DNA of 53,263 bases from Bacteroidota bacterium (GCA_046314695.1 JBKDBI010000464.1:1-53263), one strand, 5' to 3'; positions 22,109 through 44,678 are shown, counted from the stretch's first letter. The notes: a model not told the origin generated them from the letters alone. Numbers and translations: made by a program.

Positions 22109-22124
22109 CCCCCCACTCAAGGTC
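22109..22124 (+). repeat. Signature motif copy (CCCCCCACTCAAGGTC, plus strand)
   Basis: Antisense to local genes. Its complement supplies the TGA stop of gene 22117..22503. Confidence 0.95.
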
Positions 22125-22503
22125 GAGGCTGGCAGGTGTCGAGGTAGGTTTGGGCGGCTTGACGGGTAGGCCACAGGCCGAGGCAGATGAGGCGACCGTT
22201 CTGCCGGGTAGCCTCAAAGACAGGCTCGAAGTCCTCTGTTTCGCTGTTCCACAACCCGAGGATAACGTCACCCTCGCCCTTGTAAGAGCGGTAGGCGATC
22301 AAGCCGTGCTCGGGGCAGACGTACCAGTCGTCGCACTCCTGAACTTCTGCGGGGCTCGCCCAGTTGGTGCGGATGAGGAAGACGGGGCCTTCGTGGGCGG
22401 CTACGGGAGTGGTACCGTCGTGGAAGTAGATGTCAGTGATCTTCACGGGTGGGGTTCCTAGGGGGGAAGCCCGCGCGACGCGGTGTGCGGCGTGCGGGTG
22501 CAT
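22117..22503 (-). CDS. Hypothetical protein (up to 128 aa)
   Basis: ATG 22503 or an internal GTG (VKITDIYFHDG). Unassigned. Confidence 0.4.
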   Translation of the reverse strand: MHPHAAHRVARASPLGTPPVKITDIYFHDGTTPVAAHEGPVFLIRTNWASPAEVQECDDWYVCPEHGLIAYRSYKGEGDVILGLWNSETEDFEPVFEATRQNGRLICLGLWPTRQAAQTYLDTCQPRP

Positions 22504-22521
22504 CGAGTTGGATCGGAGGGA

Positions 22522-23064
22522 TCAGAGGTCGTCGTCATCGCCGTTGTTGGGGATGGAGAGGCGGACGGGCTTGATCTCGCGGATGGCAGAGCCGGATGGG
22601 CCGCAGTCACAGGACGCTGTGCAGGACGGTGGAGTGGACTCGATGTACAGCTCGCCGCCGAGGTTGTTGAACCAGCTGTCGATCAGACGAGGTGATGTGA
22701 GGTAGTCGCCGCAAGGAGCACCCGAGAGGCGGGTGTGGACGCTGGAGTTGGGAGCGATGGGTACATAGGTGTCATGCGAGGGTGCGGAGGGGAGGTGGGT
22801 CTTGATTGAGGCTGCGAGTTCGTAGCTGTTGCTGGTTTGCGCTCGGGCCTCATCGTGGGTTGAACGGAGGATGTTGAGGATGGTGTTGAGGAAGGCGGCG
22901 CGGTAGGCAGGGGAGTTGTCGCTGGCGAGGGCGAGTTGGAGGATGCGAGTCGCGTCCTTCAAGTGGGTGGTCTCGTTGTGAGCGAGGTGGAGGCGATGAT
23001 TGCGGATGGAGTCGAGGAGGTAAGAGGGGAGCTGGGAGAAGATGGAGTCAGAGGGGGTGGTCAT
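22522..23064 (-). CDS. Hypothetical protein (180 aa)
   Basis: First gene, going leftward, whose coding strand is still strongly pyrimidine-rich. Acidic C-terminus NNGDDDDL. Confidence 0.45.
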   Translation of the reverse strand: MTTPSDSIFSQLPSYLLDSIRNHRLHLAHNETTHLKDATRILQLALASDNSPAYRAAFLNTILNILRSTHDEARAQTSNSYELAASIKTHLPSAPSHDTYVPIAPNSSVHTRLSGAPCGDYLTSPRLIDSWFNNLGGELYIESTPPSCTASCDCGPSGSAIREIKPVRLSIPNNGDDDDL

Positions 23065-23317
23065 TGGAGGTGCTTTCGGGGTTGGGGGAGTGGGAGTCGA
23101 GAAGGGAACGGACGGTGATGAGGAAGTTGGGACGGTTGATGGGGACGTGGATGAGAAACTTCACCTCATCTGAGGTGGTGAAGCCGGTGAACTTGTAGGG
23201 AGAACTGACGAAGCAGGCGAAGTCGAGAGACCGGGATCGGAGTTCTCGGATGAGTTCGGCGGTTGTGGCGTAGGCGAGGTTGACAGCGGGCTGGTCACGA
23301 GCACGTCGCTTGGGCAT
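23048..23317 (-). CDS. Hypothetical protein (89 aa)
   Basis: ATG 23317 lies 5 nt after the motif AAGGAG. Confidence 0.5.
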   Translation of the reverse strand: MPKRRARDQPAVNLAYATTAELIRELRSRSLDFACFVSSPYKFTGFTTSDEVKFLIHVPINRPNFLITVRSLLDSHSPNPESTSNDHPL

Positions 23318-23826
23318 ACAAACTCCTTGAGTGGGGGGTACTGGTGCAGGAGAAGGAGGCGGACAACGAGTTCGCCTGCGGCCTTGCGTCCTGCGTCGGA
23401 CTTGGTGTCGATGAAGAAGAGGGAGATGCGGCGAGTTGAGAGTTCATGGATTAGGTGGTCGAAGGCGGGGCCGGGGTTGTGGGTCCAAGGAGCGGCTGGC
23501 TTGAAGAGGATGGAAGAGTTGCATTCGAGGAGGAGGATGGGGACGGGAAAGGCGGAGAGACGGTCGAAAGCGGCGAGGGTTCGGGCTCGGTCGTCAGTGA
23601 GGAGGTTCTTGCAGAGTTCGGAGGGGGAGCCTTTTCGCTCGATGATGCAGCGGGGAGCGGCACAGGAGAGCGAGTAATCCCCGGTCGGAAGCGTGCGAAC
23701 GAGTTTGTGGATGCGGATGACCCGACCTTCGGACGAGCGTGAGCCGGAGATTGTGTGGATCGTGGAGGGGAGGGGGAGCGGGTGCTGCTCACGCGAGTCG
23801 ATGAGGATGGTGTGCTCGGCTGGCAT
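23161..23826 (-). CDS. ERCC4 / Mus81-XPF-type endonuclease
   Basis: ILIDSREQHP ... LPTGDYSL ... IIERKGSPSELCKNL ... ILLLE matches the ERCC4 signature (D.RE ... GDY ... ERK..DL). Its 3' end overlaps the next gene by 157 nt. Confidence 0.6.
   Translation of the reverse strand: MPAEHTILIDSREQHPLPLPSTIHTISGSRSSEGRVIRIHKLVRTLPTGDYSLSCAAPRCIIERKGSPSELCKNLLTDDRARTLAAFDRLSAFPVPILLLECNSSILFKPAAPWTHNPGPAFDHLIHELSTRRISLFFIDTKSDAGRKAAGELVVRLLLLHQYPPLKEFVCPSDVLVTSPLSTSPTPQPPNSSENSDPGLSTSPASSVLPTSSPASPPQMR
23323..23338 (-). repeat. Signature motif copy (CCCCCCACTCAAGGAG)
   Basis: CCCCCCACTCAAGGAG-tttgt-ATG(23317). It lies inside the 3' tail of the ERCC4 ORF, where it is read as YPPLKE. Confidence 0.95.
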
Positions 23827-24380
23827 GGGCGTTGTCGCTTGTAGGGAATAGGGGGAATCGGCTGGTTGGCAAGGGCGGCTTCGTATTGAGAGAGCACGAA
23901 CTTGAGACCGTACTGCCTGATCCGATAGTAGACCGCTTGAACCTTGAGCGAGAGGGTGGCGGCGATGAGGGGGATCTTGGAGCGACGTCGGCGAGAGGAG
24001 GTGATGCGAGAGACGCGAGGAGGTGGGCTGTCGGGGTCTTCTGAGGAGGAGGCGGCGAGGAGGGTGCGGTTGTTGTCGTAGCAGGAGGAGCAGCGGAGCC
24101 GGTTGTTACGGCGTGCGATGCAGAGGGAGGAGGCGGAGCGGACGAGGATGGTGCCGCAGCAGGTGGCCCGGACGTTGAAGAAGTTGTTGTTGAGATGGCG
24201 GGCGTGGAAAGAGAGAACGACGAAGGGACCGAATTGCTGGTTGATGTAGGTGGTCTGGGGCTTGTGGGAGAAGTCAGGTGGAGGCGTGGATGGTGCATTC
24301 GGCAACGAGAGGGACGTAGTGTCCGTAGTGCTCGCAGATGTGGGACCAATAGCCCGTAGTCGCAATGCGTTCAACCGCAT
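23451..24380 (-). CDS. Possible Cys-rich (Zn-ribbon-like) plus helix-turn-helix protein; boundaries uncertain
   Basis: CCGT...CIARRNNRLRCSSC and IPLIAATLSLKVQAVYYRIRQYGL. The only in-frame start (ATG 24380) lies inside the polymerase 3' end. The frame then stays open for 375 nt into the ERCC4 gene. Confidence 0.3.
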   Translation of the reverse strand: MRLNALRLRAIGPTSASTTDTTSLSLPNAPSTPPPDFSHKPQTTYINQQFGPFVVLSFHARHLNNNFFNVRATCCGTILVRSASSLCIARRNNRLRCSSCYDNNRTLLAASSSEDPDSPPPRVSRITSSRRRRSKIPLIAATLSLKVQAVYYRIRQYGLKFVLSQYEAALANQPIPPIPYKRQRPCQPSTPSSSTRVSSTRSPSPPRSTQSPAHARPKVGSSASTNSFARFRPGITRSPVPLPAASSSEKAPPPNSARTSSLTTEPEPSPLSTVSPPFPSPSSSSNATLPSSSSQPLLGPTTPAPPSTT

Positions 24381-26385
24381 CTTGATAGAGGGCGAGGTAG
24401 GCCGAGAGGGCTGAGGGGTGGCAGTCGGTGTAGCAAGCGTCGTGGACATCGAGGAAGGGAGCGATGAGTCCGTGAGAGAGGAGGGAGCGGGCTTCTTTGG
24501 ATGAGAGTGCTGCATGTTCGATGGCTCGCTGGACGGTGGCAGCTGTCGTTTGGATGGGGCAGTTTAGGACTTCGGAGGTGATGTAGGCTTGGTCTTCGTT
24601 AGTGGGATCGAAGTCGGTGAAGGAGCGGCCTGCGCCGGTGAAGGGCAGGGTGATGTGGCCAAGACGGCGGGTGTCGGCGATGAGGCGGCACTGCCAATCG
24701 TAGAGAACGGGGCGGAGGGTGGGGCGGGAGCGGACAATGGAGAGGAAGAAGTCGAAGGGGAAGAGACGGCCTGTGTCCTTGAGCATGGAGGCTTGCATCC
24801 GCTTGGCGAACGCCCAGTAGAGGTCGGAGAAGTTCAGCTTCTTGGCCCACTGGCGAGGGTCCTTGCGCATGTCGCCGCACTTGAAGTCGGGTGAGGACAG
24901 GATGGAAGGGCCGAAGACGAAGACCGCGCGTTTGGTGTGGAGGTCCGGCTTGGGAAGCTGGTACTCGGTGATGAGGGTGGGCTCACCAGAGAGCACGCCG
25001 GGCACGCGAAGCTCAATCTGGGAGAGGTCGTGCGAGACGATGGAGCCGCCACGGTAGCGGGAGCGGAGGCACTTCTTGACGACGGGCGGGAAGGTCTGGG
25101 CGGCGGGCTTCTTGAAGGAGAGCCGGACTTGGGACTGACCGCCGCTGTCACCTGCTGTCGAGTCTTTGCCCTCCTGCGAAGGGGTGACGAAGATGGAGGG
25201 ATAGGCGAGCAGAACGTCCGGGTCATAGCCCCCAGCAAACACACCTTGAGTGGGGGGTTTGATAGCGACGGAAGTGGTGTCGCGCGAGCCGTCGGAGCGT
25301 GGGTTGCGTGAGCCGTGGAGGAGGGGGTAGAGGTAGGTGGAGATGACTTTGTTGAGGCGGGAGCAGGAGGTCCACTCGGTGAAAGCGGGACGGAGTGGCG
25401 AAGTGGGAGAGAGGAGGGAGAGGAGGAGGGTGCGGTTGTTGTCGTCGGTGGAGACTTTGCCGGTGCCAGTGCGGTTGATGAGACGGTGAGAGAGGATGGT
25501 GGGGAGGTTGAGAGAGGAAAGGATGTCAGGAGAGGAGTCGATCTCGTCGATGGCTCGGTCGATGAAGGATTGGCGGGAAGCGGTAGAGCCTTCGCCATTG
25601 AGGGTTAGGCCGTGGGTGAGGGTGGCGGCAGCGGCTGCGTCGGCCCGAGTGAGGTGGTCGGAGAGGGTGGAGGAGAGGGCGGAGGCAGAGAGGGGTATGC
25701 CGGACTCGATGAAGGTGAGGGCGATGTCGAGGGTGGCGGAGTAGAAGGAGGCGGCAGATGCTGAGAGTTTGGGGGAAGAGGGGCCATGCTTGGAGATGAT
25801 GGAACGGGTGAGGGCGCGAGCGAGGAGGACAACGTTGTGGGAGTCTTGGGCGCAGTAGTGTTGAGCTTCAGGCGAGTGAGGAGAAGGGAAGCGGGAGCCG
25901 GAACGAAGAGTGGAGTCGGAGTAGGAATAGATGTTGAAGACAGGGCCGAGGTCCTTGAGAGAGCGTTCGGGGCGAGCGTCGTTGTCGAGGTAGTTGAGGA
26001 TGGTGGTGTCGATGATGGGAATGCCGAGGGGCAGGCAGGAGCGGAGTCCGAAGTAGCGGAGGAAGGAGCGGTCGTAGTTGATGTTGTGACCGAGGAGGTG
26101 GGTGGCACGGGAGAGCCACTCGCGGAGCCAGCGAACGTGGGTGGGATTGTGGAGAAGGAAGAGGCGGGTGTCGATGGGCTCGATGCTGGCGAGCCACTCG
26201 TAGCCGGGGGCTGGATCAGCGCGAACGAGGGTGACGGAGATGAGGGGGACGGCACGGGCGAGGGTGCTGATGCCGGATTGGCCGTGGATGCGGGCGGGGT
26301 GGAAGTGGTCGGAATGGGGGAGGGGGCGGTTGAAAGCGTCTCGCTCAAAGGCTGAGCTGGTTTCGCAGTCGATGGAGAGGACCAT
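24274..26385 (-). CDS. Family A DNA polymerase with 3'-5' exonuclease domain (T7-like size, 703 aa)
   Basis: MVLSIDCETS (ExoI), GHNINYDRSFL (ExoII), YCAQDSHN (ExoIII), HDLSQIELRV (motif A), RQWAKKLNFSDLYW (motif B-like), FLDVHDACY (motif C). Confidence 0.85.
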   Translation of the reverse strand: MVLSIDCETSSAFERDAFNRPLPHSDHFHPARIHGQSGISTLARAVPLISVTLVRADPAPGYEWLASIEPIDTRLFLLHNPTHVRWLREWLSRATHLLGHNINYDRSFLRYFGLRSCLPLGIPIIDTTILNYLDNDARPERSLKDLGPVFNIYSYSDSTLRSGSRFPSPHSPEAQHYCAQDSHNVVLLARALTRSIISKHGPSSPKLSASAASFYSATLDIALTFIESGIPLSASALSSTLSDHLTRADAAAAATLTHGLTLNGEGSTASRQSFIDRAIDEIDSSPDILSSLNLPTILSHRLINRTGTGKVSTDDNNRTLLLSLLSPTSPLRPAFTEWTSCSRLNKVISTYLYPLLHGSRNPRSDGSRDTTSVAIKPPTQGVFAGGYDPDVLLAYPSIFVTPSQEGKDSTAGDSGGQSQVRLSFKKPAAQTFPPVVKKCLRSRYRGGSIVSHDLSQIELRVPGVLSGEPTLITEYQLPKPDLHTKRAVFVFGPSILSSPDFKCGDMRKDPRQWAKKLNFSDLYWAFAKRMQASMLKDTGRLFPFDFFLSIVRSRPTLRPVLYDWQCRLIADTRRLGHITLPFTGAGRSFTDFDPTNEDQAYITSEVLNCPIQTTAATVQRAIEHAALSSKEARSLLSHGLIAPFLDVHDACYTDCHPSALSAYLALYQDAVERIATTGYWSHICEHYGHYVPLVAECTIHAST
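25242..25257 (-). repeat. Signature motif copy (minus strand) inside the polymerase gene
   Basis: Perfect copy, co-oriented with the gene, read as KPPTQGV between the exonuclease and polymerase parts. Confidence 0.95.
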
Positions 26386-26425
26386 GTGAAGTCCAGCAGA
26401 GAGAGGAGGTTGGGTTCGAGGAGGG

Positions 26426-26860
26426 TCAGTTCGAGGCAGAGGGCAACGGCGAGGATGGGGCAGGGGGCGACGGCGGAACGGTAGTAGTCTCCGTTGATGA
26501 CGTAGGTGGCGTGGAAGAGGCCGCGTTGGTGTCCGAGAGGCGAGCACGCACCGACGTCAAGAAAGGTAGCAGGGAGGCACGGAGGTCGCGGGGTGTCTTG
26601 AGGACCGAGTAGTTGAGGATCGTTGATATGGCGGCGAGGTCTTCGGGACACAGGAGAGCCTTGTGGGTCTGAAGGAAGGCGACGTCGTCCATGAACGCGA
26701 GATAGGTGGGCAGGACGCTGGCGAGTTCGGCGAGGGAAGAACGGGTGAGGTGAATGGAGGAGTGCTGGGACTCGCCTTCGGGGGTGAAGCTGGAAAAGTG
26801 GCAGGCCAGCAAGGGGTTGGGGGAGGTGAAGGTGCTGACGAAGTGGGCGTTGAAGTTCAT
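26426..26860 (-). CDS. Hypothetical protein (144 aa)
   Basis: ATG 26860 (MNFNAHFVSTF) with an AAAGGA SD. The C-terminal part is uncertain because a second open frame (25605..26651) competes. Confidence 0.4.
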   Translation of the reverse strand: MNFNAHFVSTFTSPNPLLACHFSSFTPEGESQHSSIHLTRSSLAELASVLPTYLAFMDDVAFLQTHKALLCPEDLAAISTILNYSVLKTPRDLRASLLPFLTSVRARLSDTNAASSTPPTSSTETTTVPPSPPAPSSPLPSASN

Positions 26861-26994
26861 GGGCGGTCCTTTCGGCGGGTGTGGAACCACTCGCGGATGC
26901 GAGCGTCGAGGTCGGAGATGCGAGGGCCGATGTCGGATTTGGGTGTGTTGCTCATGCCACGATATATCGAACTCGCGGCGATATCGTGCATCGT

Positions 26995-27204
26995 TCAATT
27001 TCGTGGCGAAATCGACGCGACTCTCCTACACGCCCCCGCCGCCAACTCCAAGCACGTCGGACACAAGCCGCCGCCGTAGACCGTTTCCCGCTCGCACGCC
27101 TCGCACGGGCCGGGCTGGTTGCACTTGGCGCGGTCCGTGGCGGTTGCCCGCTCCTGACGGGCGAATGCGTCTAGTATCGCAGCGATGCGGGTGTAGACGG
27201 TCAT
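26995..27204 (-). CDS. Small Cys-rich protein (69 aa)
   Basis: ATGA overlap with the upstream stop. Contains CNQPGPCEAC...CPTC. Confidence 0.45.
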   Translation of the reverse strand: MTVYTRIAAILDAFARQERATATDRAKCNQPGPCEACERETVYGGGLCPTCLELAAGACRRVASISPRN

Positions 27205-27581
27205 TCGCCAGCCTCCTGCTTCGCCGCCAACGCTGCCAGAAGGTAGCGGTCGCGGGTTTCGTCGTTGGTGTCGGGGCACTTGGCAAGTACGCGGTACCCC
27301 CATTTCTCTTTCTTCACGGCTCGCCATTCAAGCCAGATGCCAGATGCGCACCCAGTTTCAACGAGACACGCCCTGACCCCCTCCGGCATCGCGGACGCGG
27401 CATCGTCGAGGGTGGGCGGGAAGGGGTGTGTTGCCTGTCCACGGCTCCATCCGCCATAGAGAAGACGACCCAGCCGATCCCGTTTTGTCCATTCGACGTT
27501 TGCAGGAGCGTCGGGATTGGTCTTTGGTGCGAACCACCCCGCCCGCTCTGCGTGCCAGTCGCAGAGTTGGGCCGTGGTCAT
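27201..27581 (-). CDS. Hypothetical protein (126 aa)
   Basis: ATG 27581 (MTTAQLCDWHAERAGWF). Confidence 0.45.
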   Translation of the reverse strand: MTTAQLCDWHAERAGWFAPKTNPDAPANVEWTKRDRLGRLLYGGWSRGQATHPFPPTLDDAASAMPEGVRACLVETGCASGIWLEWRAVKKEKWGYRVLAKCPDTNDETRDRYLLAALAAKQEAGE

Positions 27582-27595
27582 GGTGTGGAGGTTCT

Positions 27596-27769
27596 TCACT
27601 TCTTCCCCTCCTTCCGCCCCGCCCTGCGACCGGCGAGGTAGCCCGCGAGGTAGCCGTCCTTGTACTCTTCCTCGTGGGTCGGCAACAGGCCCACCATGTT
27701 GTTCCACTTTTTCGCGGCCTTGTCTCTGATCTGCTTCGACGTGAGCGGCTTGGGGTGCTTCTTCTTCAT
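27596..27769 (-). CDS. Small Lys-rich protein (57 aa; not in the ORF track)
   Basis: ATG 27769 overlaps the upstream TGA (ATGA). MKKKHPKPLTSKQIRDKAAKKWNN... Confidence 0.4.
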   Translation of the reverse strand: MKKKHPKPLTSKQIRDKAAKKWNNMVGLLPTHEEEYKDGYLAGYLAGRRAGRKEGKK

Positions 27770-27945
27770 GCCTTCTCCTTATGCTCTTTCCAGCGGGTGT
27801 ACGGGTCTAAGTTCTTTGGTCGGTTACTCTCATTCCATACTAAACAACAGTCACGGCAGGCGCAAAGCGAAGAAGGCGGATCTCTCCAATAGGCAACGAT
27901 GATCTTGACCGACCGGCACTGCGGGCACGTCATGCGGTCGGTCAT
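27766..27945 (-). CDS. Small Zn-ribbon-like protein (59 aa; not in the ORF track)
   Basis: ATG 27945 overlaps the upstream TGA (ATGA). MTDRMTCPQCRS...CACRDCC. Confidence 0.45.
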   Translation of the reverse strand: MTDRMTCPQCRSVKIIVAYWRDPPSSLCACRDCCLVWNESNRPKNLDPYTRWKEHKEKA

Positions 27946-28289
27946 GCCTTCTCCTCTCTTGCCGCCTCGGCGGCTTCGCGGGTGGAGTAGCAGTCGGACA
28001 CGGGGCAGTAGAAGAACTTCTCCCCCTCTTCAATCTCGATTGAGAACCCATCTTCGGGGTGTTCGATGAAACACTCACTCGGCTTGGCGTGCTTCGGGTG
28101 CCAGACCTTCATGCCGAGCCGTGCGAACTTCCCGTCCCTCGTGATCTGGCCCGCCGCCTTCGCGTCGGCCTCGATCTGGCGTAGGCGGGTGAGTTCCGCG
28201 ATGGCACGGTCGCGGATGAACCCCGCGCTCGTAACGTTTCGCCCGAGCAGCATCCGCAGTTCCTCGATCAGATCGGGTAGTTTGTTCAC
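27942..28289 (-). CDS. Hypothetical protein (115 aa)
   Basis: GTG 28289 overlaps the upstream TGA (GTGA). Confidence 0.5.
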   Translation of the reverse strand: MNKLPDLIEELRMLLGRNVTSAGFIRDRAIAELTRLRQIEADAKAAGQITRDGKFARLGMKVWHPKHAKPSECFIEHPEDGFSIEIEEGEKFFYCPVSDCYSTREAAEAAREEKA

Positions 28290-28717
28290 TTGCTGTTCTC
28301 CTGTGCCCTTGCCGCTTCGATCGCGGCGCGGGCGGTGGGGTTGGCGTTCACGGCGTCAATATCCGAATAGCCCATGCGGTTCACGTCCTCGACATCGTGC
28401 CGCTTTCGCCAAGTGTGGCATTCCTTCGCCAACACCCTCACGGCCTCGCGGAGTTCGGTGATCTGGGTTCGCATCTCGTCGGCGGTGCGATAGGCAGACA
28501 GCACAAGGCTGTGGCCGACAAACTGCCGAAGCGGTGCAATCTCCGCCTCCAACTTCCTGATCCTCGCGTTCGCGGCTTCGAGCGGGGCGGCGAGGGCTGA
28601 GATGACGCCAGTATCGACGAGTAGGCCGCCGCTTTCTGCGCCGTTCGTCCAATCCAGCCGCCGGAAATCAACCATGATCGCGTCCATCTGTTCGTACTCG
28701 GGGGTGGGGTCGGTCAT
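28286..28717 (-). CDS. Hypothetical protein (143 aa)
   Basis: AAGGAG lies 7 nt before ATG 28717. Confidence 0.55.
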   Translation of the reverse strand: MTDPTPEYEQMDAIMVDFRRLDWTNGAESGGLLVDTGVISALAAPLEAANARIRKLEAEIAPLRQFVGHSLVLSAYRTADEMRTQITELREAVRVLAKECHTWRKRHDVEDVNRMGYSDIDAVNANPTARAAIEAARAQENSK

Positions 28718-28738
28718 TGCGGGGCTCCTTGCGGGGGG

Positions 28739-29191
28739 CTAGAGGTCGGCGTTGGTGGTGTTGAGGGCAGAGGCGATACAGGCGGCGCGGAAGGTCGCGG
28801 CGTCCTTGTTGCTTGCGCGCGCAGAAGCGACGCACTTGTCGCCAGCGGTGAAGATGTCACAGATCCAGTTTGCGCATTCTGCGTGTGCTAATCCGATGTA
28901 GTATTTCTGGGGGGTGCCGACTGGTTGGGCTTTGATGCAGAGGGCACGGAGTTCGCGTTGCTTTTCAGCGGCGAGCACGGCCCATGCCGAGGCTGCGGTG
29001 GAGTAGAGGCGGGACATGGCGTAGCGGGTGGTGGTGGCGTGGGAGATCATCCAGTCACCGCTGGGTTGGGTGATGATGTCCCAGAACGTGATCTTGCGGA
29101 CCTCGTCTTTGTCGATGTAGAAGAGGGGGTCGCTGGGGGAGAGGGAGGAGAGTTTGGTGCCGCAGGCGAGGGTGACTTCGGAGAGTTTCAT
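28739..29191 (-). CDS. Hypothetical protein (150 aa)
   Basis: ATG 29191 is preceded by CCCCCCAAGGCC, which is the motif lacking ACTC. Confidence 0.5.
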   Translation of the reverse strand: MKLSEVTLACGTKLSSLSPSDPLFYIDKDEVRKITFWDIITQPSGDWMISHATTTRYAMSRLYSTAASAWAVLAAEKQRELRALCIKAQPVGTPQKYYIGLAHAECANWICDIFTAGDKCVASARASNKDAATFRAACIASALNTTNADL

Positions 29192-29472
29192 GGGTGGGCC
29201 TTGGGGGGAGGGAGGGAGAAGCGGCGGGTGGGCGTTTGGGGACCGAGCGAGACGGAGAAGGCGGACATGCGAGCGAGCCAGTTGGTCAGGGCGTGGAGGT
29301 GGCGGAGTTCGGCTCGGGTGGGTGGTTGGGGTTTGATGGAGCGGGAGCGGTATTCGAGGGAGTAGGAGGAGTGGAGGAGCTGGAGTCCAGCGATGACTGA
29401 GGAAGTGAGGACGGGGCAGCGAGGGTGGGAGAAGTAGTGGACTCGGGGCTTTCGTCGGGCTGGGCTGGGCAT
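29188..29472 (-). CDS. Hypothetical ORF (94 aa), competes with 29286..29648
   Basis: Two open frames overlap in this stop-poor strand. I cannot tell which parts are translated. Confidence 0.3.
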   Translation of the reverse strand: MPSPARRKPRVHYFSHPRCPVLTSSVIAGLQLLHSSYSLEYRSRSIKPQPPTRAELRHLHALTNWLARMSAFSVSLGPQTPTRRFSLPPPKAHP

Positions 29473-29648
29473 GTGTCCTCGCTGGAGAGGAAGGTGAGAT
29501 AGCGAAGAACGTCGCTCAGGTCACGAGATTGAGCGGACGTGGGCATCGAATCAGGGTCGGGCAAGATGGATACGAGCCAACCGATCTTGCGCCGGAGCTT
29601 CTGGGTGAGACGGGGCCGGTAGTTGTGTGGAGTAGGTGGGATGAGCAT
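29286..29648 (-). CDS. Hypothetical ORF (120 aa), low-complexity C-terminus
   Basis: The N-terminal 60 aa look protein-like. The remainder is Ser/Pro/Thr-rich. Confidence 0.3.
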   Translation of the reverse strand: MLIPPTPHNYRPRLTQKLRRKIGWLVSILPDPDSMPTSAQSRDLSDVLRYLTFLSSEDTCPAQPDESPESTTSPTLAAPSSLPQSSLDSSSSTPPTPSNTAPAPSNPNHPPEPNSATSTP

Positions 29649-29674
29649 AGGTGGGTGGGGGTCAGATGTAGTGC

Positions 29675-29998
29675 TCAGCGTGAGAGGATGTCGGCAGCGA
29701 GGCGACGCATGTCGATGAGGATGCGGCGGTCGTAGGTGGTGGGGCAGGTGGTGGGGCGGAAGGAGAGGGAGTGGGCGGAGCGGAGCGAACGATAGGACTT
29801 CAGGAGGGAGGACGAGAAGCGGAGGCGATCGGGAGGCAAGGTGCGGATGGAGCGGGTGTAGCCCTTGACACGGGACCTGCTGAGGAAGGAGGTGGCACGG
29901 GAGACATCATCGCGGAGTTGGTCGGACAGGGTGCGTAGGTCGGAGAGCGAGTAGCGGGGCTTGACGGGCTTACGGGTGGGGGTGGGGGTGCGTGGCAC
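29675..29998 (-). CDS. Hypothetical Arg/Ser-rich protein (107 aa)
   Basis: GTG 29998 lies 3 nt after the stop of the 55-aa ORF. Confidence 0.4.
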   Translation of the reverse strand: MPRTPTPTRKPVKPRYSLSDLRTLSDQLRDDVSRATSFLSRSRVKGYTRSIRTLPPDRLRFSSSLLKSYRSLRSAHSLSFRPTTCPTTYDRRILIDMRRLAADILSR

Positions 29999-30001
29999 GG
30001 G

Positions 30002-30169
30002 TTACTCCGGGGTGAGGGATTCGCGGGCGGTGAGTTCCGCCTTGAACTGGCGGAAGGGGATGGCTTTGAGGACGTGGAACTTGCGGGTGGTGCGATAGTC
30101 GCCAGCGTTAGCTTTGACCCTGACTGAGACAAGTTTGTTCTGGCGGGGTGAGCGTCTTGTCTTACCCAT
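30002..30169 (-). CDS. Small basic protein (55 aa; not in the ORF track)
   Basis: ATG 30169 lies 6 nt after motif copy 30176. MGKTRRSPRQNKLVSVRVKANAGDYRTTRKF... Confidence 0.45.
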   Translation of the reverse strand: MGKTRRSPRQNKLVSVRVKANAGDYRTTRKFHVLKAIPFRQFKAELTARESLTPE

Positions 30170-30175
30170 GTGAAT

Positions 30176-30190
30176 CGCCTTGAGTGGGGG
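30176..30190 (-). repeat. Signature motif copy (CCCCCACTCAAGGCG)
   Basis: CCCCCACTCAAGGCG-attcac-ATG(30169), directly after the stop of 30191..30430. Confidence 0.9.
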
Positions 30191-30430
30191 TTAGCCGACG
30201 GAGTTGATGCGGAAGGAACCGTGTATGACGTAGGGGGTTTGCCGCATGATGTATTCGCTGAGGTCGGGGGAGACGCATCGCAGATCTCCAGCGAGGTCAA
30301 TGAGTGCAACGCCGGACACCATGACGACGTAGGGGCTGCCTTCGACGGTGACGACGGTGTTGGGCGGGAGTTCGCTGACCTTGCGCTTGTGGGGAGAGGT
30401 GGGCCAATGGTCGGTACAGACGATGTGCAT
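30191..30430 (-). CDS. Hypothetical protein (79 aa)
   Basis: ATG 30430 lies 8 nt after variant motif 30439. Confidence 0.5.
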   Translation of the reverse strand: MHIVCTDHWPTSPHKRKVSELPPNTVVTVEGSPYVVMVSGVALIDLAGDLRCVSPDLSEYIMRQTPYVIHGSFRINSVG

Positions 30431-30437
30431 GGGTTAG

Positions 30438-31568: not shown

Positions 31569-31578
31569 GGTGTGCTCC

Positions 31579-41108: not shown

Positions 41109-42512
41109 TCACTCCTGCCCATCCGCCTTCATCGCCAGCCCCACATAGAACATCCGCCCGTTCACCTTCCTCCTACCCAGTGCCCAACTGGTTGTCTTCA
41201 TGAACCCCTTGTGGAACCTGTTCTCGCTCATGACAGGCCCCCTCTCCCTCCTGAACACCTCCCACATCGTCGCAGCGGCCACCATCCCGCTCCCCACCTT
41301 CACAAACCACTGGCACAGGAAGTCATCCGCCTCATTCACCTCCCTCTGGAAATCCTCTACCTCCTCGCGTCCCAGCTCCACGTCAAACTTCTTCGCACTG
41401 TCCGGCTCCCTCAGCACCCGCCCCAACGCCTCCACCGCCTTCCTCGCCACCCCCGCCAGCTCCGCCTCCAGCTTCTCTTCCAGCCCCGGATCTTCTTTGC
41501 CCGCCCAACTCCTGTTGAACGGCAGCACCCTCAGCTTGCTGCTGATGGCCCTCGCATGGTCCGGCAAGTTAGGGATCGTGTTGCCGACCATCAGCACAGT
41601 CGCATTGATCTGCGTCCGCACCGGCAACTGCCACTTCCCATTGAGCGTCAGCACGTCCCGTCCCACCACCTTCTTCACCACGCTACCTGCCGTCTCTGCT
41701 TGACTCTTCCCGAGCTTGCTCACCTCCTCAACCACGATCACTCCCGCCACCTGCGCACCCCACAACCCATACTCGCTCGTCAGACTCTTCACGTCCGTCA
41801 TAAACGCCCCCGCTCCCTTCAGCTTCTTCACCAACCTGCTCGTCACCCCCTTCCCTCCTCTCGTCAGACCCTCCAGCACCCCAATAACCCCTAACCTCCG
41901 CTCATTCCCCACTGCCAGTCCCATCAGCCTCCACCACATCTCCACCCACCTCTCCTGCCCCTCACCCCACTCACTCACCGTCCGATCCATCAGGGGGCAT
42001 TCCGCTCGTCCACTGGCCCACGCCACCGGCAGCACACCGACATCCACCCAATCCTGAGTCCGCTCCCACGTCTCCCCCGTCCTCGCATTGACCACCACAT
42101 CCTCAAACCCTACACACTCCCACTCTTCCACACCCTGCGGCTTCCTCAGCCACACCGGCAGCGTCTCCGCCTTGAACAAGCTGAAGCCCTTGACGGCATC
42201 CATCACATCGTCCACCATCCGCTTATCAACCCTCACCCGCGTCGTCACCGTGGTCATCTCATCCTCTTGCTCCTCAGTCACGCACACACTCAGAAACTCC
42301 CACAACGCAGCCCTCATCTCCGTCTCGTTCACCCCCACCTCCCACCTTCCCACACCCGGACTCGTCTCGCGCCACATCAGCCACGTACCCTTCCACCACA
42401 ACAGCCCCCGCTTGCTCGCCGTGCAACCCCACACCACAGCCATCGCCCGCCTCGCCAGATCCGCTGGTGCATCGCTCTCAACCACAACCCTGACTGGTGC
42501 TGACCCGGACAT
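41109..42512 (-). CDS. D5/P4-type SF3 replicative helicase (primase-helicase C-terminal NTPase)
   Basis: ATG 42512 with a GAAGGA SD. Walker A VLEGLTRGGKGVTS, Walker B AGVIVVEEVS, motif C LMVGNTIPNLPD. It is encoded on the purine-rich strand, unlike all its neighbours. Confidence 0.7.
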   Translation of the reverse strand: MSGSAPVRVVVESDAPADLARRAMAVVWGCTASKRGLLWWKGTWLMWRETSPGVGRWEVGVNETEMRAALWEFLSVCVTEEQEDEMTTVTTRVRVDKRMVDDVMDAVKGFSLFKAETLPVWLRKPQGVEEWECVGFEDVVVNARTGETWERTQDWVDVGVLPVAWASGRAECPLMDRTVSEWGEGQERWVEMWWRLMGLAVGNERRLGVIGVLEGLTRGGKGVTSRLVKKLKGAGAFMTDVKSLTSEYGLWGAQVAGVIVVEEVSKLGKSQAETAGSVVKKVVGRDVLTLNGKWQLPVRTQINATVLMVGNTIPNLPDHARAISSKLRVLPFNRSWAGKEDPGLEEKLEAELAGVARKAVEALGRVLREPDSAKKFDVELGREEVEDFQREVNEADDFLCQWFVKVGSGMVAAATMWEVFRRERGPVMSENRFHKGFMKTTSWALGRRKVNGRMFYVGLAMKADGQE

Positions 42513-42556
42513 CGTGCTATCCTTCTCTGGACCCTCTGGCCCTTTGGAGTTCCCGC

Positions 42557-43012
42557 ATGAAACCCACGATCGGCACACTGTCCGACCGCTCCTTCAACAA
42601 CTACCTCTCAATCCTCGAAGGCTCGTCCAAACTCTCCCCCGCCACCCAGCTCTCCATCCTGCACTCCATGCGGCACAACTTCCGTGCCCAAGACTTCGCA
42701 GCCATCACCCAAGACATCGCCCAGAAGGCCAAAGCCACCGGGAGCAACCGGAGCAGCCGCGACATCCTCATGACCCCCACTCAAGGTGTGGGCCGAGGCC
42801 GCTCTTCATCTTCAGTTGTGCCTGTTGCGACCGCCGCAAGGAGAGCTTCAACTCAATCCGTTATGCCAGTTCAAAAGCCTGTGCGCGGTGGTCGCCAACT
42901 TGATCCCACCATCCTATCATCTCGTACCGCCGCCATCAACCCCCTGTCCGATTTCCCCCTCACGCTCGGCTCAGCCAATGCCCCCCTCGTCTTCACGCCC
43001 CCCGTCCTCTGA
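42557..43012 (+). CDS. First gene of the rightward arm, hypothetical (151 aa)
   Basis: GGAG lies 8 nt before ATG 42557 (MKPTIGTLSDRSF). It is divergent from the helicase start, only 44 bp away. Confidence 0.45.
   Translation: MKPTIGTLSDRSFNNYLSILEGSSKLSPATQLSILHSMRHNFRAQDFAAITQDIAQKAKATGSNRSSRDILMTPTQGVGRGRSSSSVVPVATAARRASTQSVMPVQKPVRGGRQLDPTILSSRTAAINPLSDFPLTLGSANAPLVFTPPVL
42774..42788 (+). repeat. Signature motif copy (plus strand)
   Basis: CCCCCACTCAAGGTG, read as TPTQGV in 42557..43012. Confidence 0.95.
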
Positions 43013-43027
43013 CCCTCCCCCTCCCAA

Positions 43028-43044
43028 CGCCTTGAGTGGGGGGG
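43028..43044 (-). repeat. Signature motif copy (CCCCCCCACTCAAGGCG, minus strand)
   Basis: Lies 15 nt after the TGA of 42557..43012. It is convergent with 42774, with 239 nt between them. Confidence 0.9.
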
Positions 43045-43052
43045 ATGACTCG

Positions 43053-43877
43053 GTGCATTATGCACCGCCCGGTGTCTACCATCGCAACGCCAAAGACCCC
43101 TCCGCCTTCACGACCCAGACCGACTCGCCTGTCGCGGACTACGTGTCGTTTGGGCCGGGCCTCCGCTTCTACTCGCTCCGCTATCTGCACCGCACGCTCG
43201 CACCGACGGGCTTCACTGTGGAAGCCCTCGCCCACCTCTGCACCCTCTACGGAGTTCCCCTTGTCTACTTTCACCCAAGACACGCCTTCGTTGAGTTCGA
43301 CACCTTCAAGCTCGTACTTCGATCACTCGTTGCTCCGGGGGGTCACGGCATCCCAGCATCCCTCCCCGACGTTGCCCCTTCATCTCACTTCGACCGTCTA
43401 CGCGACACTGCCCGACTTCTCGTCAGTGAGCTGTACGCTCTTCGCAAGCTCAACCAGCTCCCCGCGCCCGCTGACCTGAAAGCCTCGCTTGACACCGCAG
43501 CCTCCACACTCGCTCTTCACGCCATGCAGATTCGAGATGTGGCAACCTTCGAGCGAGCGATGCAGGCTCGCAAGCAGGCGGCTATACTCTTCGAGGACGA
43601 GCCCGAGTCGATAACGACCTACTTCGATGTGGATGAGGAGGCCCAGCAGTGCCACCCGAACTTTCAGGACAATTGCCCCAGCTCCCCCGGCCTCGCCGAA
43701 ACGCTGTGGTCCATTCCAGCGGAGCAGAAGTCGCAGCCTCCTTCTTCAACCCCGACGGGTTCGGAACGTCGTGCGTCGAAAACGGCTTCGACCAAGCGGA
43801 ACTCGTCAATACGCTCATCACCCACGTCCGCTCCCCCGACCCCGCCGTCTCTCTCCGAGCCATCCCCCTCTTCCTGA
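43053..43877 (+). CDS. Hypothetical protein (about 274 aa); start uncertain
   Basis: The frame of track ORF 42786..43877 becomes protein-like from DDSVHYAPPGVYHRN. GTG 43053 follows GGGGGGA. TTG 43032 is also possible. Confidence 0.4.
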   Translation: MHYAPPGVYHRNAKDPSAFTTQTDSPVADYVSFGPGLRFYSLRYLHRTLAPTGFTVEALAHLCTLYGVPLVYFHPRHAFVEFDTFKLVLRSLVAPGGHGIPASLPDVAPSSHFDRLRDTARLLVSELYALRKLNQLPAPADLKASLDTAASTLALHAMQIRDVATFERAMQARKQAAILFEDEPESITTYFDVDEEAQQCHPNFQDNCPSSPGLAETLWSIPAEQKSQPPSSTPTGSERRASKTASTKRNSSIRSSPTSAPPTPPSLSEPSPSS

Positions 43878-44134
43878 GCACCGCCGCTAAGTCGCTTGAG
43901 GCCGCTGGTGCCGTCAAGCAGGCCACCCAAACCACACGCACCCCAGACGGTCGTGTCACCACTCTCACCGCTACCCGCATCATTTTGGAGTCTCCTGATG
44001 TCGATCAGCAACGCGACCCTCAATGCGAACGCAACCTCCTTCCAGCCTCATTCGGGTCCGCCGACTTGGCTGCCCCATCAGCAGAGGCTCTTCAGCGACA
44101 TCCGCAAAGTGATTCTTCAGAACGAACCGCGTGA
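43649..44134 (+). CDS. Hypothetical ORF (161 aa), overlaps both neighbours
   Basis: The middle part (FNPDGFGTSCVENGFDQAELVNTLITHVRSPDP...) looks protein-like. The start is uncertain. Confidence 0.3.
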   Translation: MPPELSGQLPQLPRPRRNAVVHSSGAEVAASFFNPDGFGTSCVENGFDQAELVNTLITHVRSPDPAVSLRAIPLFLSTAAKSLEAAGAVKQATQTTRTPDGRVTTLTATRIILESPDVDQQRDPQCERNLLPASFGSADLAAPSAEALQRHPQSDSSERTA

Positions 44135-44678
44135 CTGCTTTACGTGGTTGTTGCGTGGTTTCAAGAGCCTTGGTCTCATGAATCCGTGCAACCGCTCCTC
44201 TCACAACGACGTGTACTGGGGCGGTCTCTTCATGAAGGTCGTCGATCTGTGGACCGCTCAGGCATTGCCGCTTGAGTGGCAGATCCCCATCAACGAAGCC
44301 GTCTGTGAGTCGCAGATCGACGAAGCCTGCACGTTCCTTGGCAAGTGCCACGTTATGGTGGCGATGGCCGCGTACGCCATCCACGTCAATCCCAACCTTC
44401 TTGCCACGTCGGAGTCCGTGTCATGCCGCCCGCAGTCGTCCAAGTCTCACGGCTCAACAATCCCTACTACCCACTCCCCGCTGACTACCCCGAGCTTGAC
44501 GACGACGGACAGCGGCTCGCCCGAGTCAACGCCTGCCGTCAGTGGCTCGTCCACGCAGCCGACCCTACCGTCCAGTCTGACCTCTACGCAGCCTCAGTCA
44601 ACTTCTTCAACCGCTACTACCTCTACCCCGACCCCGCCGACGACTTCGATCCGTCGTTCTACCAAAACGGCCTCGTAA
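43998..44678 (+). CDS. Hypothetical protein directly upstream of the large terminase (small-terminase position)
   Basis: GGAG lies 9 nt before ATG 43998 (MSISNATLNANA). The frame stays open 255 nt into the terminase gene as a Ser/Thr/Pro tail. The call rests on position only. Confidence 0.35.
   Translation: MSISNATLNANATSFQPHSGPPTWLPHQQRLFSDIRKVILQNEPRDCFTWLLRGFKSLGLMNPCNRSSHNDVYWGGLFMKVVDLWTAQALPLEWQIPINEAVCESQIDEACTFLGKCHVMVAMAAYAIHVNPNLLATSESVSCRPQSSKSHGSTIPTTHSPLTTPSLTTTDSGSPESTPAVSGSSTQPTLPSSLTSTQPQSTSSTATTSTPTPPTTSIRRSTKTAS

Follow-up and report, generated by a model that had tools for sequence, protein, structure and literature searches.

Extreme strand asymmetry with a flip beside the helicase gene of an uncultivated phage: a candidate replication-linked mutational bias

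Why should guanine be nearly absent from the silent sites of one strand across ~18 kb of a genome, and why should this preference pass sharply to the other strand? The question is raised by the window analysed here, a stretch of 53,263 nucleotides from an uncultivated phage of 53 kb. A sequence-only reading had described an extreme purine/pyrimidine asymmetry with a change of sign at 40.4-41.1 kb. The features discussed below are collected in Table 1.

On the plus strand, nucleotides 22501-26990 contain 2000 G and 786 C (GC skew +0.436, purine fraction 0.644, binomial z 23) and nucleotides 28741-39200 contain 4743 G and 1825 C (+0.444, 0.652, z 36), with the sign reversed at 41101-44400 (644 G, 1380 C; -0.364, 0.379, z -16). 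The extremes per 1 kb are +0.58 (35-36 kb) and -0.495 (41-42 kb), and over 42579-46444 the 1-kb values run from -0.435 to -0.21, decaying away from the flip. Cumulative GC-skew and purine curves both reach their maxima at 40,632 and their minima at 46,536. The z-scores of 16-36 and the sharp flip at 40,632 bear out the claimed asymmetry, and the base counts quoted for two 60-mers (33001-33060 and 41101-41160) are exactly right. As a purine/pyrimidine effect it holds in part: the purine skew is present, but AT skew is small in the region counts over all sites, so the asymmetry at that level is mainly one of G and C. For skew and 4-fold composition we used two phages of similar GC content, phiKMV and YuA, as comparators; their maximal absolute skew over 2 kb is 0.08, against 0.57 here. 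To our knowledge, replication skews in dsDNA phages or bacteria are all several times smaller. Far from vanishing at synonymous sites, the skew is strongest at 4-fold sites and codon position 3, and weaker at positions 2 and 1. Non-coding DNA matches its neighbourhood, with skews of +0.29 to +0.48 left of the flip and of -0.41 and -0.43 right of it. The asymmetry is genuine and extreme.

Its sign belongs to the DNA strand and region and not to gene orientation, as had been proposed. Both sign changes, at 40,632 (helicase/early genes) and 46,536 (TerL/portal), fall between co-oriented genes, and where the coding strand does switch, at 12.4 and 42.7 kb, the sign is unchanged. TerL is C-rich and the neighbouring portal gene G-rich, both on the plus strand. 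The early genes, on the minus strand, have C 0.707 and G 0.077 at pooled 4-fold sites; the co-oriented SF3 helicase, confirmed as a gene on the purine-rich strand, is their mirror image (G 0.704, C 0.091).

Within the core early genes of 28739..39227 the 4-fold skew amplitude is 0.8-0.9 (per gene, C 0.72-0.80 and G 0.03-0.08). The plus-strand terminase block (42579-46444) has C 0.50 and G 0.20. Two sets of genes had been described as unbiased, and here the earlier description fails: those at 12-22 kb have C 0.505 and G 0.22, a weaker bias of the same plus-strand sign that is back at baseline by 12-14 kb, and the plus-strand virion genes from portal onward deviate likewise on that strand (G 0.46, C 0.26, against C 0.43-0.50 and G 0.35-0.40 in phiKMV/YuA). 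On the strand that reads outward from the flip, 4-fold G is down ~4-7 fold and A ~2 fold, and C/(C+T) is about constant (0.82 vs baseline 0.78 to ~0.88). The complement of the helicase carries the identical purine-loss signature, and the G-rich strand is depleted in pyrimidines overall (0.14 at 4-fold sites). The coding strand of the virion genes shows a differing, classical signature, with C down and T up. No oriented oligomers were over-represented, and neither G-runs nor G-quadruplex motifs were enriched, which argues against selection at the level of motifs.

The genes on the pyrimidine-rich strand are real, with Pfam/PHROG matches for PolA, ThiF/E1, JAB and TerL and a weak one for ERCC4, and long overlapping ORFs were found there. 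Compared with the structural proteins, the early proteins are enriched in Ser (11.2 vs 6.6%), Pro (9.8 vs 5.3%) and His (3.9 vs 1.1%) and depleted in Gly (3.6 vs 9.0%), Lys (2.1 vs 3.8%), Glu (3.2 vs 5.4%) and Met (1.1 vs 2.9%); the amino acid bias is thus as claimed except for Trp, which shows no depletion (1.0 vs 1.1%). PolA is very divergent, with 26% identity to known phage PolA across 40% of its length. Neither a primase nor any nucleotide-metabolism or base-modification gene was recognised in the phage.

Table 1. Coordinates of the features discussed, from left to right in the window
Feature	Position	Strand	Remarks
Moderately skewed distal leftward block	12233..22503	-	pooled 4-fold sites and per-gene gradient
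721-aa gene	within 12233..22503	-	
AAA_24 (annealase-like)	14636-15583	-	Pfam
PD-(D/E)XK nuclease	16224-17480	-	Pfam
Second strongly skewed part	22522..26998	-	skew +0.436
ERCC4-like nuclease	23161-23826	-	weak Pfam/PHROG match
PolA	24274-26547	-	Pfam/PHROG; 4-fold C 0.72, G 0.06
Unskewed island	26995..28717	-	six small, tightly packed genes; skew ~0
Strongly skewed early block	28739..39227	-	coding strand C-rich, G-poor; plus-strand skew +0.444
UDG-like gene	30668-31336	-	homology to Pfam-UDG genes of relatives L004 and L010
ThiF/E1	31579-32796	-	Pfam match
JAB	32553-34262	-	Pfam match
690-aa gene	34099-36171	-	inside strongly skewed block
Non-coding stretch	39228..39895	-	between first early gene and skewed block; skew +0.14
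First leftward gene (172 aa)	39896..40414	-	unskewed; 4-fold C 0.47, G 0.32
Flip point	40600..40660	.	cumulative maxima at 40,632, at conserved GGGGGTG..CACCCCC hairpin
Non-coding control region	40633..41108	.	3' of helicase; plus strand C-rich, skew -0.41
GGGGAGGGA/TCCCTCCCC hairpins	40881-40917, 40741-40791		in control region
ATATATATA tract	40940-40949		in control region, 3' of helicase
14-bp stem	41024-41085		followed by T-run on minus strand; probably helicase terminator
D5/SF3-type helicase	41109..42578	-	phrog_6088 2e-19; DUF5906 3.4e-5; homologues P0009-P0015
C-rich right-arm genes	42579..46444	+	42786-43877, 43896-44678, TerL
TerL, large terminase	44345-46444	+	phrog_38 2.6e-36
TerL-portal spacer	46445..46682	.	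second, low-amplitude switch; cumulative minimum 46,536
CCCCACTCAAGGTG motif, one copy	46529-46542		in TerL-portal spacer

The pattern is shared with relatives. The GC-rich members of this ~50-kb phage family again have a C-rich early block, and the helicase-to-early flip is repeated in ~12 IMG/VR relatives and in L010, in keeping with the mirror symmetry claimed about 40.4-41.1 kb. In 10 of the 12 IMG/VR relatives, and also in L010 at 27% identity, a G-rich helicase is followed by 3 kb of C-rich sequence. Among ~28 relatives the 4-fold skews of the polymerase gene form a graded series between 0 and -0.76. With distance from the flip the bias weakens on either side in the window, and it does so in L006, L008, L056 and L059 as well. 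Since the skew is extreme, its flip independent of gene direction and the pattern common to dozens of relatives, the most likely cause is lopsided copying of DNA.

The control region between the flip and the helicase has a layout that resembles a replication origin, and we treat it as a candidate. In P4 and SaPI elements the origin lies directly 3' of the initiator helicase gene; P4 alpha/ori and SaPI pri-rep-ori have, as here, a helicase gene, a terminator, and then a spacer with repeats or hairpins around an AT-rich tract. The layout is kept in relatives: in the window, and in most of the relatives examined, the flip falls 0.4-1 kb beyond the helicase gene, within a spacer that carries a conserved TTATATATA tract and hairpins. 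Unlike P4/SaPI, the spacer has no regular iteron array, only scattered GGGAGG/CCTCCC repeats, and we know of no extreme skew in elements of that type.

Our preferred explanation, held at a little short of even confidence, is a mutational asymmetry linked to single-strand exposure during replication and centred on an origin at 40.6-41.1 kb. The region at ~40.63-41.1 kb, directly 3' of the SF3 helicase gene, would be the origin, its AT-rich tract being flanked by short repeats and hairpins. Forks or displacement loops would leave it both ways, a long way leftward but no more than ~6 kb rightward, and the strand running 5' to 3' away from it (minus on the left, plus on the right) would be the displaced or lagging-strand template, staying single-stranded for long, like the heavy strand of vertebrate mitochondrial DNA. 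We infer that the exposed strand would shed purines, guanine foremost, through depurination or oxidation, and that bypass copying would put pyrimidines in their place. Over evolutionary time this would leave the exposed strand C-rich and G-poor and its partner G-rich, most strongly near the origin and more weakly farther off. As most early genes lie on the exposed strand, their codons and then their proteins would shift towards Ser, Pro, Thr, Leu and His; the helicase, on the opposite strand, would shift towards Gly, Val, Glu and Trp.

An origin at the flip implies a C-rich leading strand, opposite to the bacterial rule, so purine-loss chemistry is needed rather than classical cytosine deamination. 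The observed signature fits depurination or oxidation of G followed by purine insertion opposite the lesion during bypass. A family A polymerase, an SF3 helicase and a UDG-like gene, with no recognisable primase, would be weakly compatible with delayed second-strand synthesis. Against the origin model stand the amplitude, so far beyond known replication skews, its stepwise course, with changes at gene-block boundaries and not smoothly, and the absence of skew from the flip to 1.4 kb on its left and in the 1.7-kb island at 27.0-28.7 kb. We propose, for the island only tentatively, that the island and the first gene are recently acquired cassettes in which drift is pending. The island (4-fold C ~0.4, G ~0.35) has an unskewed orthologue in L001, with low synonymous divergence between the two, and no homologues in more distant relatives. 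The protein of the first gene has an identical copy in 34 blocks of public assemblies. The adjoining non-coding stretch, with a fold z of -2.7 against 20 shuffles and no Rfam or tRNA match, may encode a structured RNA or act in regulation. Since the arms are very unequal (~28-47 kb vs 5.9 kb), the model needs an extra assumption, and the classical signature of the virion genes means that a two-arc picture of the whole replicon may merge two processes.

The strongest rival, though in our view unlikely, is selection for transcripts that are rich in C, poor in G and almost without structure, directed away from a divergent control region at 40.5-41 kb. Such transcripts might evade a G-dependent RNase or defence of the host, keep clear of internal Shine-Dalgarno-like or CsrA sites or of R-loops, or interact with Rho, which binds RNA of this composition; the helicase would be G-rich solely through a rightward antisense transcript across it. 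Each arm is indeed C-rich outward from the control region, a promoter scan located a sigma-70-like leftward promoter (40548-40520) upstream of the first gene, the base order C > T > A >= G holds at 4-fold and 2-fold sites alike, and the alternative early cassette of strain L013 is C-rich too. The skewed block resembles an early operon, and its variable length among relatives (5 to >19 kb) would equally fit an operon of variable length. The T-run of the helicase terminator hairpin is on the minus strand only, so this terminator would not stop a rightward transcript. However, the same scan found no rightward promoter in 40,632-41,100, the helicase, a replication gene, has a mirror-image message, and C-richness extends to terminase, usually expressed late, but not to the adjoining portal gene, which is G-rich. 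The supposed operon also contains the unskewed island and an unskewed first gene, the messages of low-GC relatives are normal and purine-rich, and so heavy a distortion of protein composition is a large cost for a benefit at the RNA level. Given that the helicase is a mirror image, the terminase C-rich and the non-coding DNA skewed, strand-based mutation is the better reading, with no decisive separation between the two. In that reading the skew would be a property of DNA strands set by mutation, and not of genes or messages.

A shade less probable again is a second mutational reading, in which the flip is a DNA end or a site of fork convergence and the exposed G-rich strands lose cytosine. 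In the first version 40.63 kb would be a cos/pac site or terminal-repeat junction, with terminase genes near one end, and in each cycle 5' to 3' resection by the phage PD-(D/E)XK exonuclease with its annealase would bare 3'-ended strands at both ends; in the second, forks from an origin near 46.5 kb would meet at 40.63 kb. The G-rich strands are those with 3' ends towards 40,632 on both sides, with the bias maximal nearby, and the polarity, with G exceeding C on the exposed strand, is the classical one. The terminase genes are 2-6 kb away, and the phage has the PD-(D/E)XK nuclease, the AAA_24 annealase-like protein and the ERCC4-like nuclease. Contigs of two relatives (four assemblies) stop within ~80 nt of the flip, and a same-sample 46.7-kb contig, the source of L001, apparently ends nearby too, judging from coordinates. 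Yet numerous assemblies of the window phage continue through the site, and the IMG/VR genomes of relatives are opened at arbitrary points, in one case within the polymerase gene, the way circular or permuted assemblies would be; contig ends cluster at other variable spots as well and so may simply mark strain variation. Moreover, cytosine deamination would raise T on the exposed strand, where pyrimidines are instead depleted, a change from C to G would need a pyrimidine to be placed opposite an abasic site, as family A polymerases seldom do, and resection of at least 18 kb would be very long.

Improbable, in our judgement, is a copying bias without damage, in which nascent strands made by the family A polymerase from the flip would gain C or lack G through its error spectrum, an early dGTP-poor or dCTP-rich pool or a modified base, the other strand being made differently. 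All changes on the C-rich strand (G to C, T or A; A to C; T to C) could reflect heavy use of dCTP and sparing use of dGTP during its synthesis, and the polymerase is both very divergent and linked to the UDG-like protein. Bacteria with PolC, whose purine asymmetry has been linked to distinct leading- and lagging-strand polymerases, offer a precedent. Against this, the phage has no recognised nucleotide-metabolism or base-modification gene, the effect is ten-fold where known leading/lagging fidelity differences are few-fold, and copying bias alone explains neither the decay with distance nor the island. Artefact or chance (a chimeric assembly, a strand called wrongly, or ordinary coding-strand bias inflated by window choice) has virtually no probability left and is refuted by the z-scores, by near-identical sequence crossing the flip in five independent public contigs, by relatives from many samples that repeat the pattern and by the low skew of the equal-GC comparators, nothing having been found in its favour.

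Single-strand exposure from a candidate origin may also be set beside known skews. As in the replication-associated chirochores of bacteria, plasmids and some dsDNA viruses, the sign follows the DNA strand, there are two switch points, one of them in an origin-like spacer next to the gene for the replication helicase, and synonymous sites are affected most. The phage differs in an amplitude several-fold larger (0.44-0.58 overall, 0.8-0.9 at core 4-fold sites), in a G/C (purine/pyrimidine) instead of a keto/amino signature (G+T against A+C), in very unequal arms with block-wise amplitude fading with distance and, if the origin is at the flip, in inverted polarity. Vertebrate mitochondrial DNA, replicated by strand displacement with a phage-type family A polymerase and helicase, is comparable in magnitude: at 4-fold sites most genes have almost no G on their sense strand, protein composition follows the bias, a family A polymerase is at the core of the replisome in both, and there is a gradient from the origin. 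Its transitions (C to T and A to G on the exposed strand) give a G+T-rich strand, whereas in the phage C:T is unchanged and purines become pyrimidines; under the origin model the exposed phage strand is the C-rich one, and the phage helicase is of SF3 (D5-like) type rather than Twinkle/gp4-like. With transcription-associated skew the phage has in common that most genes of the skewed block share one coding strand and that transcription diverges from the flip region. The sign ignores the coding strand, however (helicase; terminase against portal), and the pyrimidine-rich, G-poor early coding strands are the opposite of Szybalski purine loading. The virion genes do follow the ordinary mild coding-strand pattern.

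GC skew on the plus strand of the window (61.5% G+C) was +0.436 at 22,501-26,990, +0.444 at 28,741-39,200 and -0.364 at 41,101-44,400, with binomial z values of 23, 36 and -16, respectively. AT skew in the same three regions was only +0.05, +0.07 and -0.05; over all sites the asymmetry is mainly one of G and C. The extremes among 1-kb windows were +0.58 at 35-36 kb and -0.495 at 41-42 kb. In the comparator phages phiKMV (62% G+C) and YuA (64.5%) the absolute skew of 2-kb windows never exceeded 0.08, against 0.57 here. Region skews, z-scores and comparator contrast all agree with the extreme strand asymmetry claimed from a sequence-only reading, whose base counts for two quoted 60-mers were exactly as stated, and the skew is confirmed to lie far outside ordinary values.

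The cumulative GC-skew and cumulative purine curves share a peak at 40,632 (the flip) and the next minimum at 46,536, and each of these switch points falls between co-oriented genes. The helicase and the early genes (leftward genes at 22.5-27.0 and 28.7-39.2 kb) are all on the minus strand and are mirror images in composition; the terminase (C-rich) and portal (G-rich) genes, both on the plus strand, have opposite signs; and the coding strand switches at ~12.4 kb and 42.7 kb without a change of sign. These observations bear out the earlier proposal that the sign belongs to strand and region rather than to gene orientation. Transcription or coding-strand bias as the sole cause is contradicted by the helicase and by the terminase/portal contrast, and the sign rule of purine-loaded coding strands is not obeyed, the early genes being pyrimidine-rich and the co-oriented helicase the opposite. 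Non-coding or unassigned DNA inside the left block keeps the local skew (+0.29 to +0.48), and to the right of the flip non-coding skew was -0.41 (40,633-41,108) and -0.43 (42,579-42,785). To either side, the strand read outward 5' to 3' from 40,632 is rich in C and poor in G. Leftward the bias is strong for ~18 kb and is at baseline by 12-14 kb; rightward it fades over 5.9 kb. On both sides, and in relatives, the decay is stepwise and broken by unskewed genes. The second switch is of low amplitude and is not fixed in the related phage L008.

Disappearance of the skew at synonymous sites had been named beforehand as telling against it. The skew does not disappear there, since it is greatest at codon position 3, followed by positions 2 and 1, and the pooled 4-fold skew was -0.80.

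Features of the window and base composition at 4-fold degenerate sites, pooled per gene class and read on the coding strand
Feature	Position	Strand	Basis	4-fold sites
Virion genes		+		C 0.26, G 0.46, T 0.21
Genes at 12.2-22.5 kb	12.2-22.5 kb	-		C 0.505, G 0.22
AAA_24	14636-15583	-	family searches	
PD-(D/E)XK nuclease	16224-17480	-	family searches	
Early genes	22.5-27.0 + 28.7-39.2 kb	-		C 0.707, G 0.077, T 0.15, A 0.066
ERCC4, weak match	23161-23826	-	family searches	
Family A DNA polymerase	24274-26547	-	family searches	
Island + first gene	26,995-28,717 + 39,896-40,414	-		C 0.42, G 0.33
Homologue of Pfam-labelled UDG genes of relatives L004 and L010	30668-31336	-		
ThiF/E1	31579-32796	-	family searches	
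JAB	32553-34262	-	family searches	
First gene, unskewed	left of promoter	-		
Sigma-70-like leftward promoter (predicted)	40,548-40,520	-	promoter scan	
GC hairpin GGGGGTG..CACCCCC	at skew maximum			
GGGGAGGGA/TCCCTCCCC hairpins	leftward of ATATATATA tract		sequence, repeats	
ATATATATA tract adjoining T7GA	40,940-40,949		sequence	
14-bp perfect stem, then TTTTTCGTT (probable helicase terminator)	41,024-41,085	-	sequence, repeats	
D5/SF3-type helicase, sole gene on purine-rich strand; stop at 41,109	41109-42578	-	phrog_6088 2e-19; DUF5906 3.4e-5	C 0.091, G 0.704
Gene 42786-43877 + terminase	42786-43877 + 44345-46444	+		C 0.50, G 0.20
Large terminase	44345-46444	+	family searches	

Single core early genes reached a 4-fold C of 0.80 with G at 0.03; the comparator phages had C of 0.43-0.50 and G of 0.35-0.40. 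Relative to unskewed genes and comparators, G on the C-rich strand is down ~4-7 fold and A ~2 fold, with C/(C+T) unchanged at 0.82 (baseline 0.78 to ~0.88). Of the 4-fold sites on that strand 0.14 are purines, vs 0.46 in unskewed genes, and pyrimidines occupy 86% of these sites in the early coding strands. The complement of the helicase gave the same pattern (C/(C+T) 0.87, G/(A+G) 0.47), and on the G-rich strand 4-fold sites hold more A than T (0.15 vs 0.066), with pyrimidines depleted overall. In mutational terms the asymmetry is one of purine against pyrimidine, of the transversion type, the dominant change being purine to pyrimidine on one strand. Neither the keto excess (G>C, T>A) of cytosine and adenine deamination nor a mitochondrial-like transition signature (C->T, A->G) was seen at the 4-fold sites of the skewed strands, and deamination as the only cause is ruled out by the A/T and pyrimidine data. 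The virion genes show the ordinary pattern on their coding strand, with C down and T up. Polymorphism among five near-identical strains amounted to ~20 variable sites, too few for a spectrum.

Oriented sequence signals do not explain the bias. No 6-8-mer on the G-rich strands stood notably above Markov expectation (top z ~4, mostly single-copy words), and the 14-nt motif CCCCACTCAAGGTG is found on both strands, mostly upstream of start codons. Runs of G3+ fell short of expectation (466 vs 533, and 157 vs 222), and quadruplex motifs were at or below shuffle expectation. On these oligomer, G-run and quadruplex results, Chi/KOPS-like polarity (no over-represented oligomer) and quadruplex or R-loop design (neither G-runs nor quadruplex motifs enriched) are ruled out.

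The spacer containing the flip, beside the replication helicase, appears origin-like. Its AT tract and hairpins are kept in relatives, and the distance from the helicase to the skew maximum beyond it is 0.4-1 kb in most of those examined. The promoter scan found no canonical rightward promoter in 40.63-41.1 kb; TTGACA at 40926 lies too near the TATATA tract.

Judged by sequence comparison, no isolated phage is close to this one. A DNA search of the INPHARED phage collection with the window found nothing, nor did a search with the portal protein, and the polymerase has only 26% identity over 40% of its length to known phages. Five public contigs spanning the flip are from the same phage (99.8-99.97% identity). 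Many public metagenomes contain it, among them JGI 3300027806, 3300008116, 3300008450 and 3300021582 and ENA ERZ27247959 and ERZ17175169. In the relatives L001 and L006-L009 the polymerase or helicase is 79-88% identical, more distant relatives being L002-L005 and L010; the relatives' coding strands around the polymerase are all C-rich (skew -0.2 to -0.64), and their helicase arms are all G-rich, with a bias that grows toward the flip. Single-protein scans of IMG/VR gave no close relative, and the only hits of a genome-collection scan were cellular PolI genes. When IMG/VR was scanned by alignment, ~45 contigs came up, many of them 45-55 kb long, with polymerase identities of 27-39%; these were analysed as 20-kb pieces. 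In the GC-rich members an early block with C-rich skew (-0.2 to -0.6) begins directly after a co-oriented G-rich helicase, and the low-GC members have normal purine-rich coding strands. Among these relatives the 4-fold skew of the polymerase is graded from 0 to -0.76. The length of the skewed block ranges among relatives from 5 to >19 kb and is not tied to the polymerase.

Our leading explanation, to which we would give not quite an even chance, is mutational asymmetry from replication starting at 40.6-41.1 kb; we infer both the origin function and the chemistry. Forks would leave this site, and the outward-reading strands would be the exposed ones, as displaced or lagging-strand templates. 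The lesion would be loss of purines in single-stranded DNA, by depurination or guanine oxidation; insertion of a purine opposite it would yield a purine-to-pyrimidine change, and the bias would be expected to be strongest near the origin. In mitochondrial DNA such bias is strongest near the heavy-strand origin (OH). The gene content (a family A polymerase and a helicase, with no primase recognised) gives a hint of strand displacement in which the second strand would be made late. The mutational reading fits best because the sign is strand-based, the flip is sharp and lies in an origin-like spacer, the skew is maximal at silent sites, non-coding DNA is skewed, the bias decays with distance and its distribution across the lineage is graded. 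Against an origin stand the polarity, opposite to the rule in bacteria, the stepwise amplitude, the very unequal arms, and the unskewed first gene and 1.7-kb island, for both of which a recent arrival is plausible; the virion genes seem to be under a separate, ordinary process. The island is orthologous in L001, where its 4-fold divergence is ~12% vs ~25% in the flanks, and has no homologues in the distant relatives.

Selection for G-poor outward transcripts would account for the operon-like extent of the skew and for the ranking of the bases, but it requires a postulated antisense transcript over the helicase and leaves the terminase/portal contrast unexplained; we consider it unlikely. Under such selection, structure-free early RNA, paid for in protein distortion, would evade or use a host factor that senses G or RNA structure (an RNase, a defence sensor, CsrA or Rho), and the antisense transcript would constrain the helicase gene. 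It is similarly doubtful that G-depleted early RNA is adaptive throughout this family of ~50-kb phages. Somewhat less probable again is that the flip marks a genome end or a point of fork convergence, the exposed strands then being the G-rich, 3'-ended ones. The contigs of two relatives stop there, the terminase genes are close by and the phage carries an exonuclease/annealase module; many assemblies nevertheless pass through the site, and an unusual C->G chemistry would be required. A bias of the polymerase, the dNTP pool or base modification on one nascent strand is improbable. Pfam, PHROG, NCBIfam and PDB sequence searches of the unknown proteins gave no match to nucleotide metabolism, base modification, primase or RNA polymerase. 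An artefact has a negligible probability as the source, assembly artefact being ruled out by the recurrence of the skew in many independent assemblies.

We rate the finding as belonging with replication-associated strand asymmetries, among which it stands out by its amplitude and polarity. Its magnitude and its effect on the proteome recall vertebrate mitochondrial DNA; in contrast, the keto/amino signature shared by replication skew and mitochondrial DNA is lacking. Literature searches turned up no phage reported to have such a skew, and a replication mode with long-lived single strands and a purine-loss signature, if the family uses one, would be new for dsDNA phages. Should the skew be a record of replication, it reveals the site and direction of DNA copying in an uncultivated virus, and would be a bacterial-virus counterpart of mitochondrial heavy/light asymmetry, distinguished by its signature (purine-loss or G/C), offering a system in which to study strand-displacement replication and its mutational cost. 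If it is selected, it would represent a new layer of phage-host conflict through RNA composition. The finding is of value in three ways: the sequence itself points to how a widespread family of uncultivated phages replicates; proteins have drifted with base composition so far that homology searches and gene callers fail; and RNA composition may here be under selection.

The genes on the pyrimidine-rich strand are real, and their placement there, as first read, is upheld by family matches to the polymerase, ThiF/E1, JAB, ERCC4 (weakly) and large terminase. The many long overlapping ORFs reported were also present on the stop-poor pyrimidine strands, and such false ORFs mislead gene callers. The bias reshapes proteins, giving Ser/Pro/Thr/Leu/His-rich enzymes and a Gly/Val/Glu/Trp-rich helicase; the amino-acid shift was as claimed except for Trp, which is not depleted. 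This reshaping is probably why most genes of the window have no family match. The ORF at 53014-53263 joined to 1-456 stays open, without a stop, across the end-to-start junction, so the window is probably a complete circular or permuted assembly of 53,263 bp, cut inside a virion gene. The virion gene 6407-7867(+), with GC1/2/3 of 0.67/0.58/0.64 and a position-2 skew of -0.35, may encode a Gly/Ala-rich fibre-like protein.

The ThiF/E1-like and JAB-domain genes of the early block adjoin a gene for a 690-aa protein (31579-36171(-) in all), which had no match in Pfam, PHROG, NCBIfam or PDB. The corresponding region of the relative L002 (654-4555) has an extra ThiS-like (ubiquitin-fold) gene upstream. 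The set forms a ubiquitin-like or sulfur-carrier module within a phage replication region. A 9-bp in-frame indel at 34842-34850, in the 690-aa gene, sets the window apart from three otherwise near-identical strains.

The 668-nt non-coding stretch at 39228-39895 has a skew of +0.14, far below its neighbours, and many inverted repeats. Its minus-strand RNA folds more stably than shuffled sequence (z = -2.7, 20 shuffles) and may be a structured leader or regulatory RNA; tRNA and Rfam scans of the window gave no match, this stretch included for Rfam. In strain L013 (JGI 3300021582, 99.7-99.97% identical), positions 5936-8657 replace 38170-40359 of the window with unrelated sequence that carries different small genes, which are equally strongly C-rich; its first gene shares the N-terminus MNAIVAPAPAPVSSAAAPP with that of the window. 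Proteins encoded at 18.3-22.1 kb and 29.67-30.0 kb are 91-98% identical to those of L001, and those of neighbouring genes 47-80%, a sharp mosaic that points to recent recombination between lineages.

Contigs of two related phages (L006-L009; two assemblies each, from different pipelines) end within ~80 nt of the flip, next to the conserved GC hairpin (window ~40560-40640). In sample ERZ17175169 the genome lies in 46.8-kb and 8.0-kb contigs of equal coverage; the 8.0-kb contig ends at the flip and, from coordinate arithmetic, the 46.8-kb contig appears to do so too. These ends suggest that either the DNA physically stops here or the assemblies break where a junction varies. As proof of physical termini the contig ends were rejected, since the window phage assembles through the site and ends cluster at other variable spots too.

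The motif CCCCACTCAAGGTG has 22 sites in the window at <=2 mismatches, 13 of them exact, against 0.7 expected, and is common to L001, L006 and L008. Minus-strand examples are 37012-37025, 30679-30692, 23323-23336, 17982-17995 and 13442-13455. An inverted pair, 41025-41038(+)/41071-41084(-), forms the stem of the helicase terminator, and the copy at 46529-46542(+) sits at the second skew switch. Others lie within genes, and many are 4-8 nt upstream of ATG, a position from which the AAGGTG/AAGGAG part would act as a ribosome-binding site, much like the 'start-associated sequences' of cluster K mycobacteriophages.
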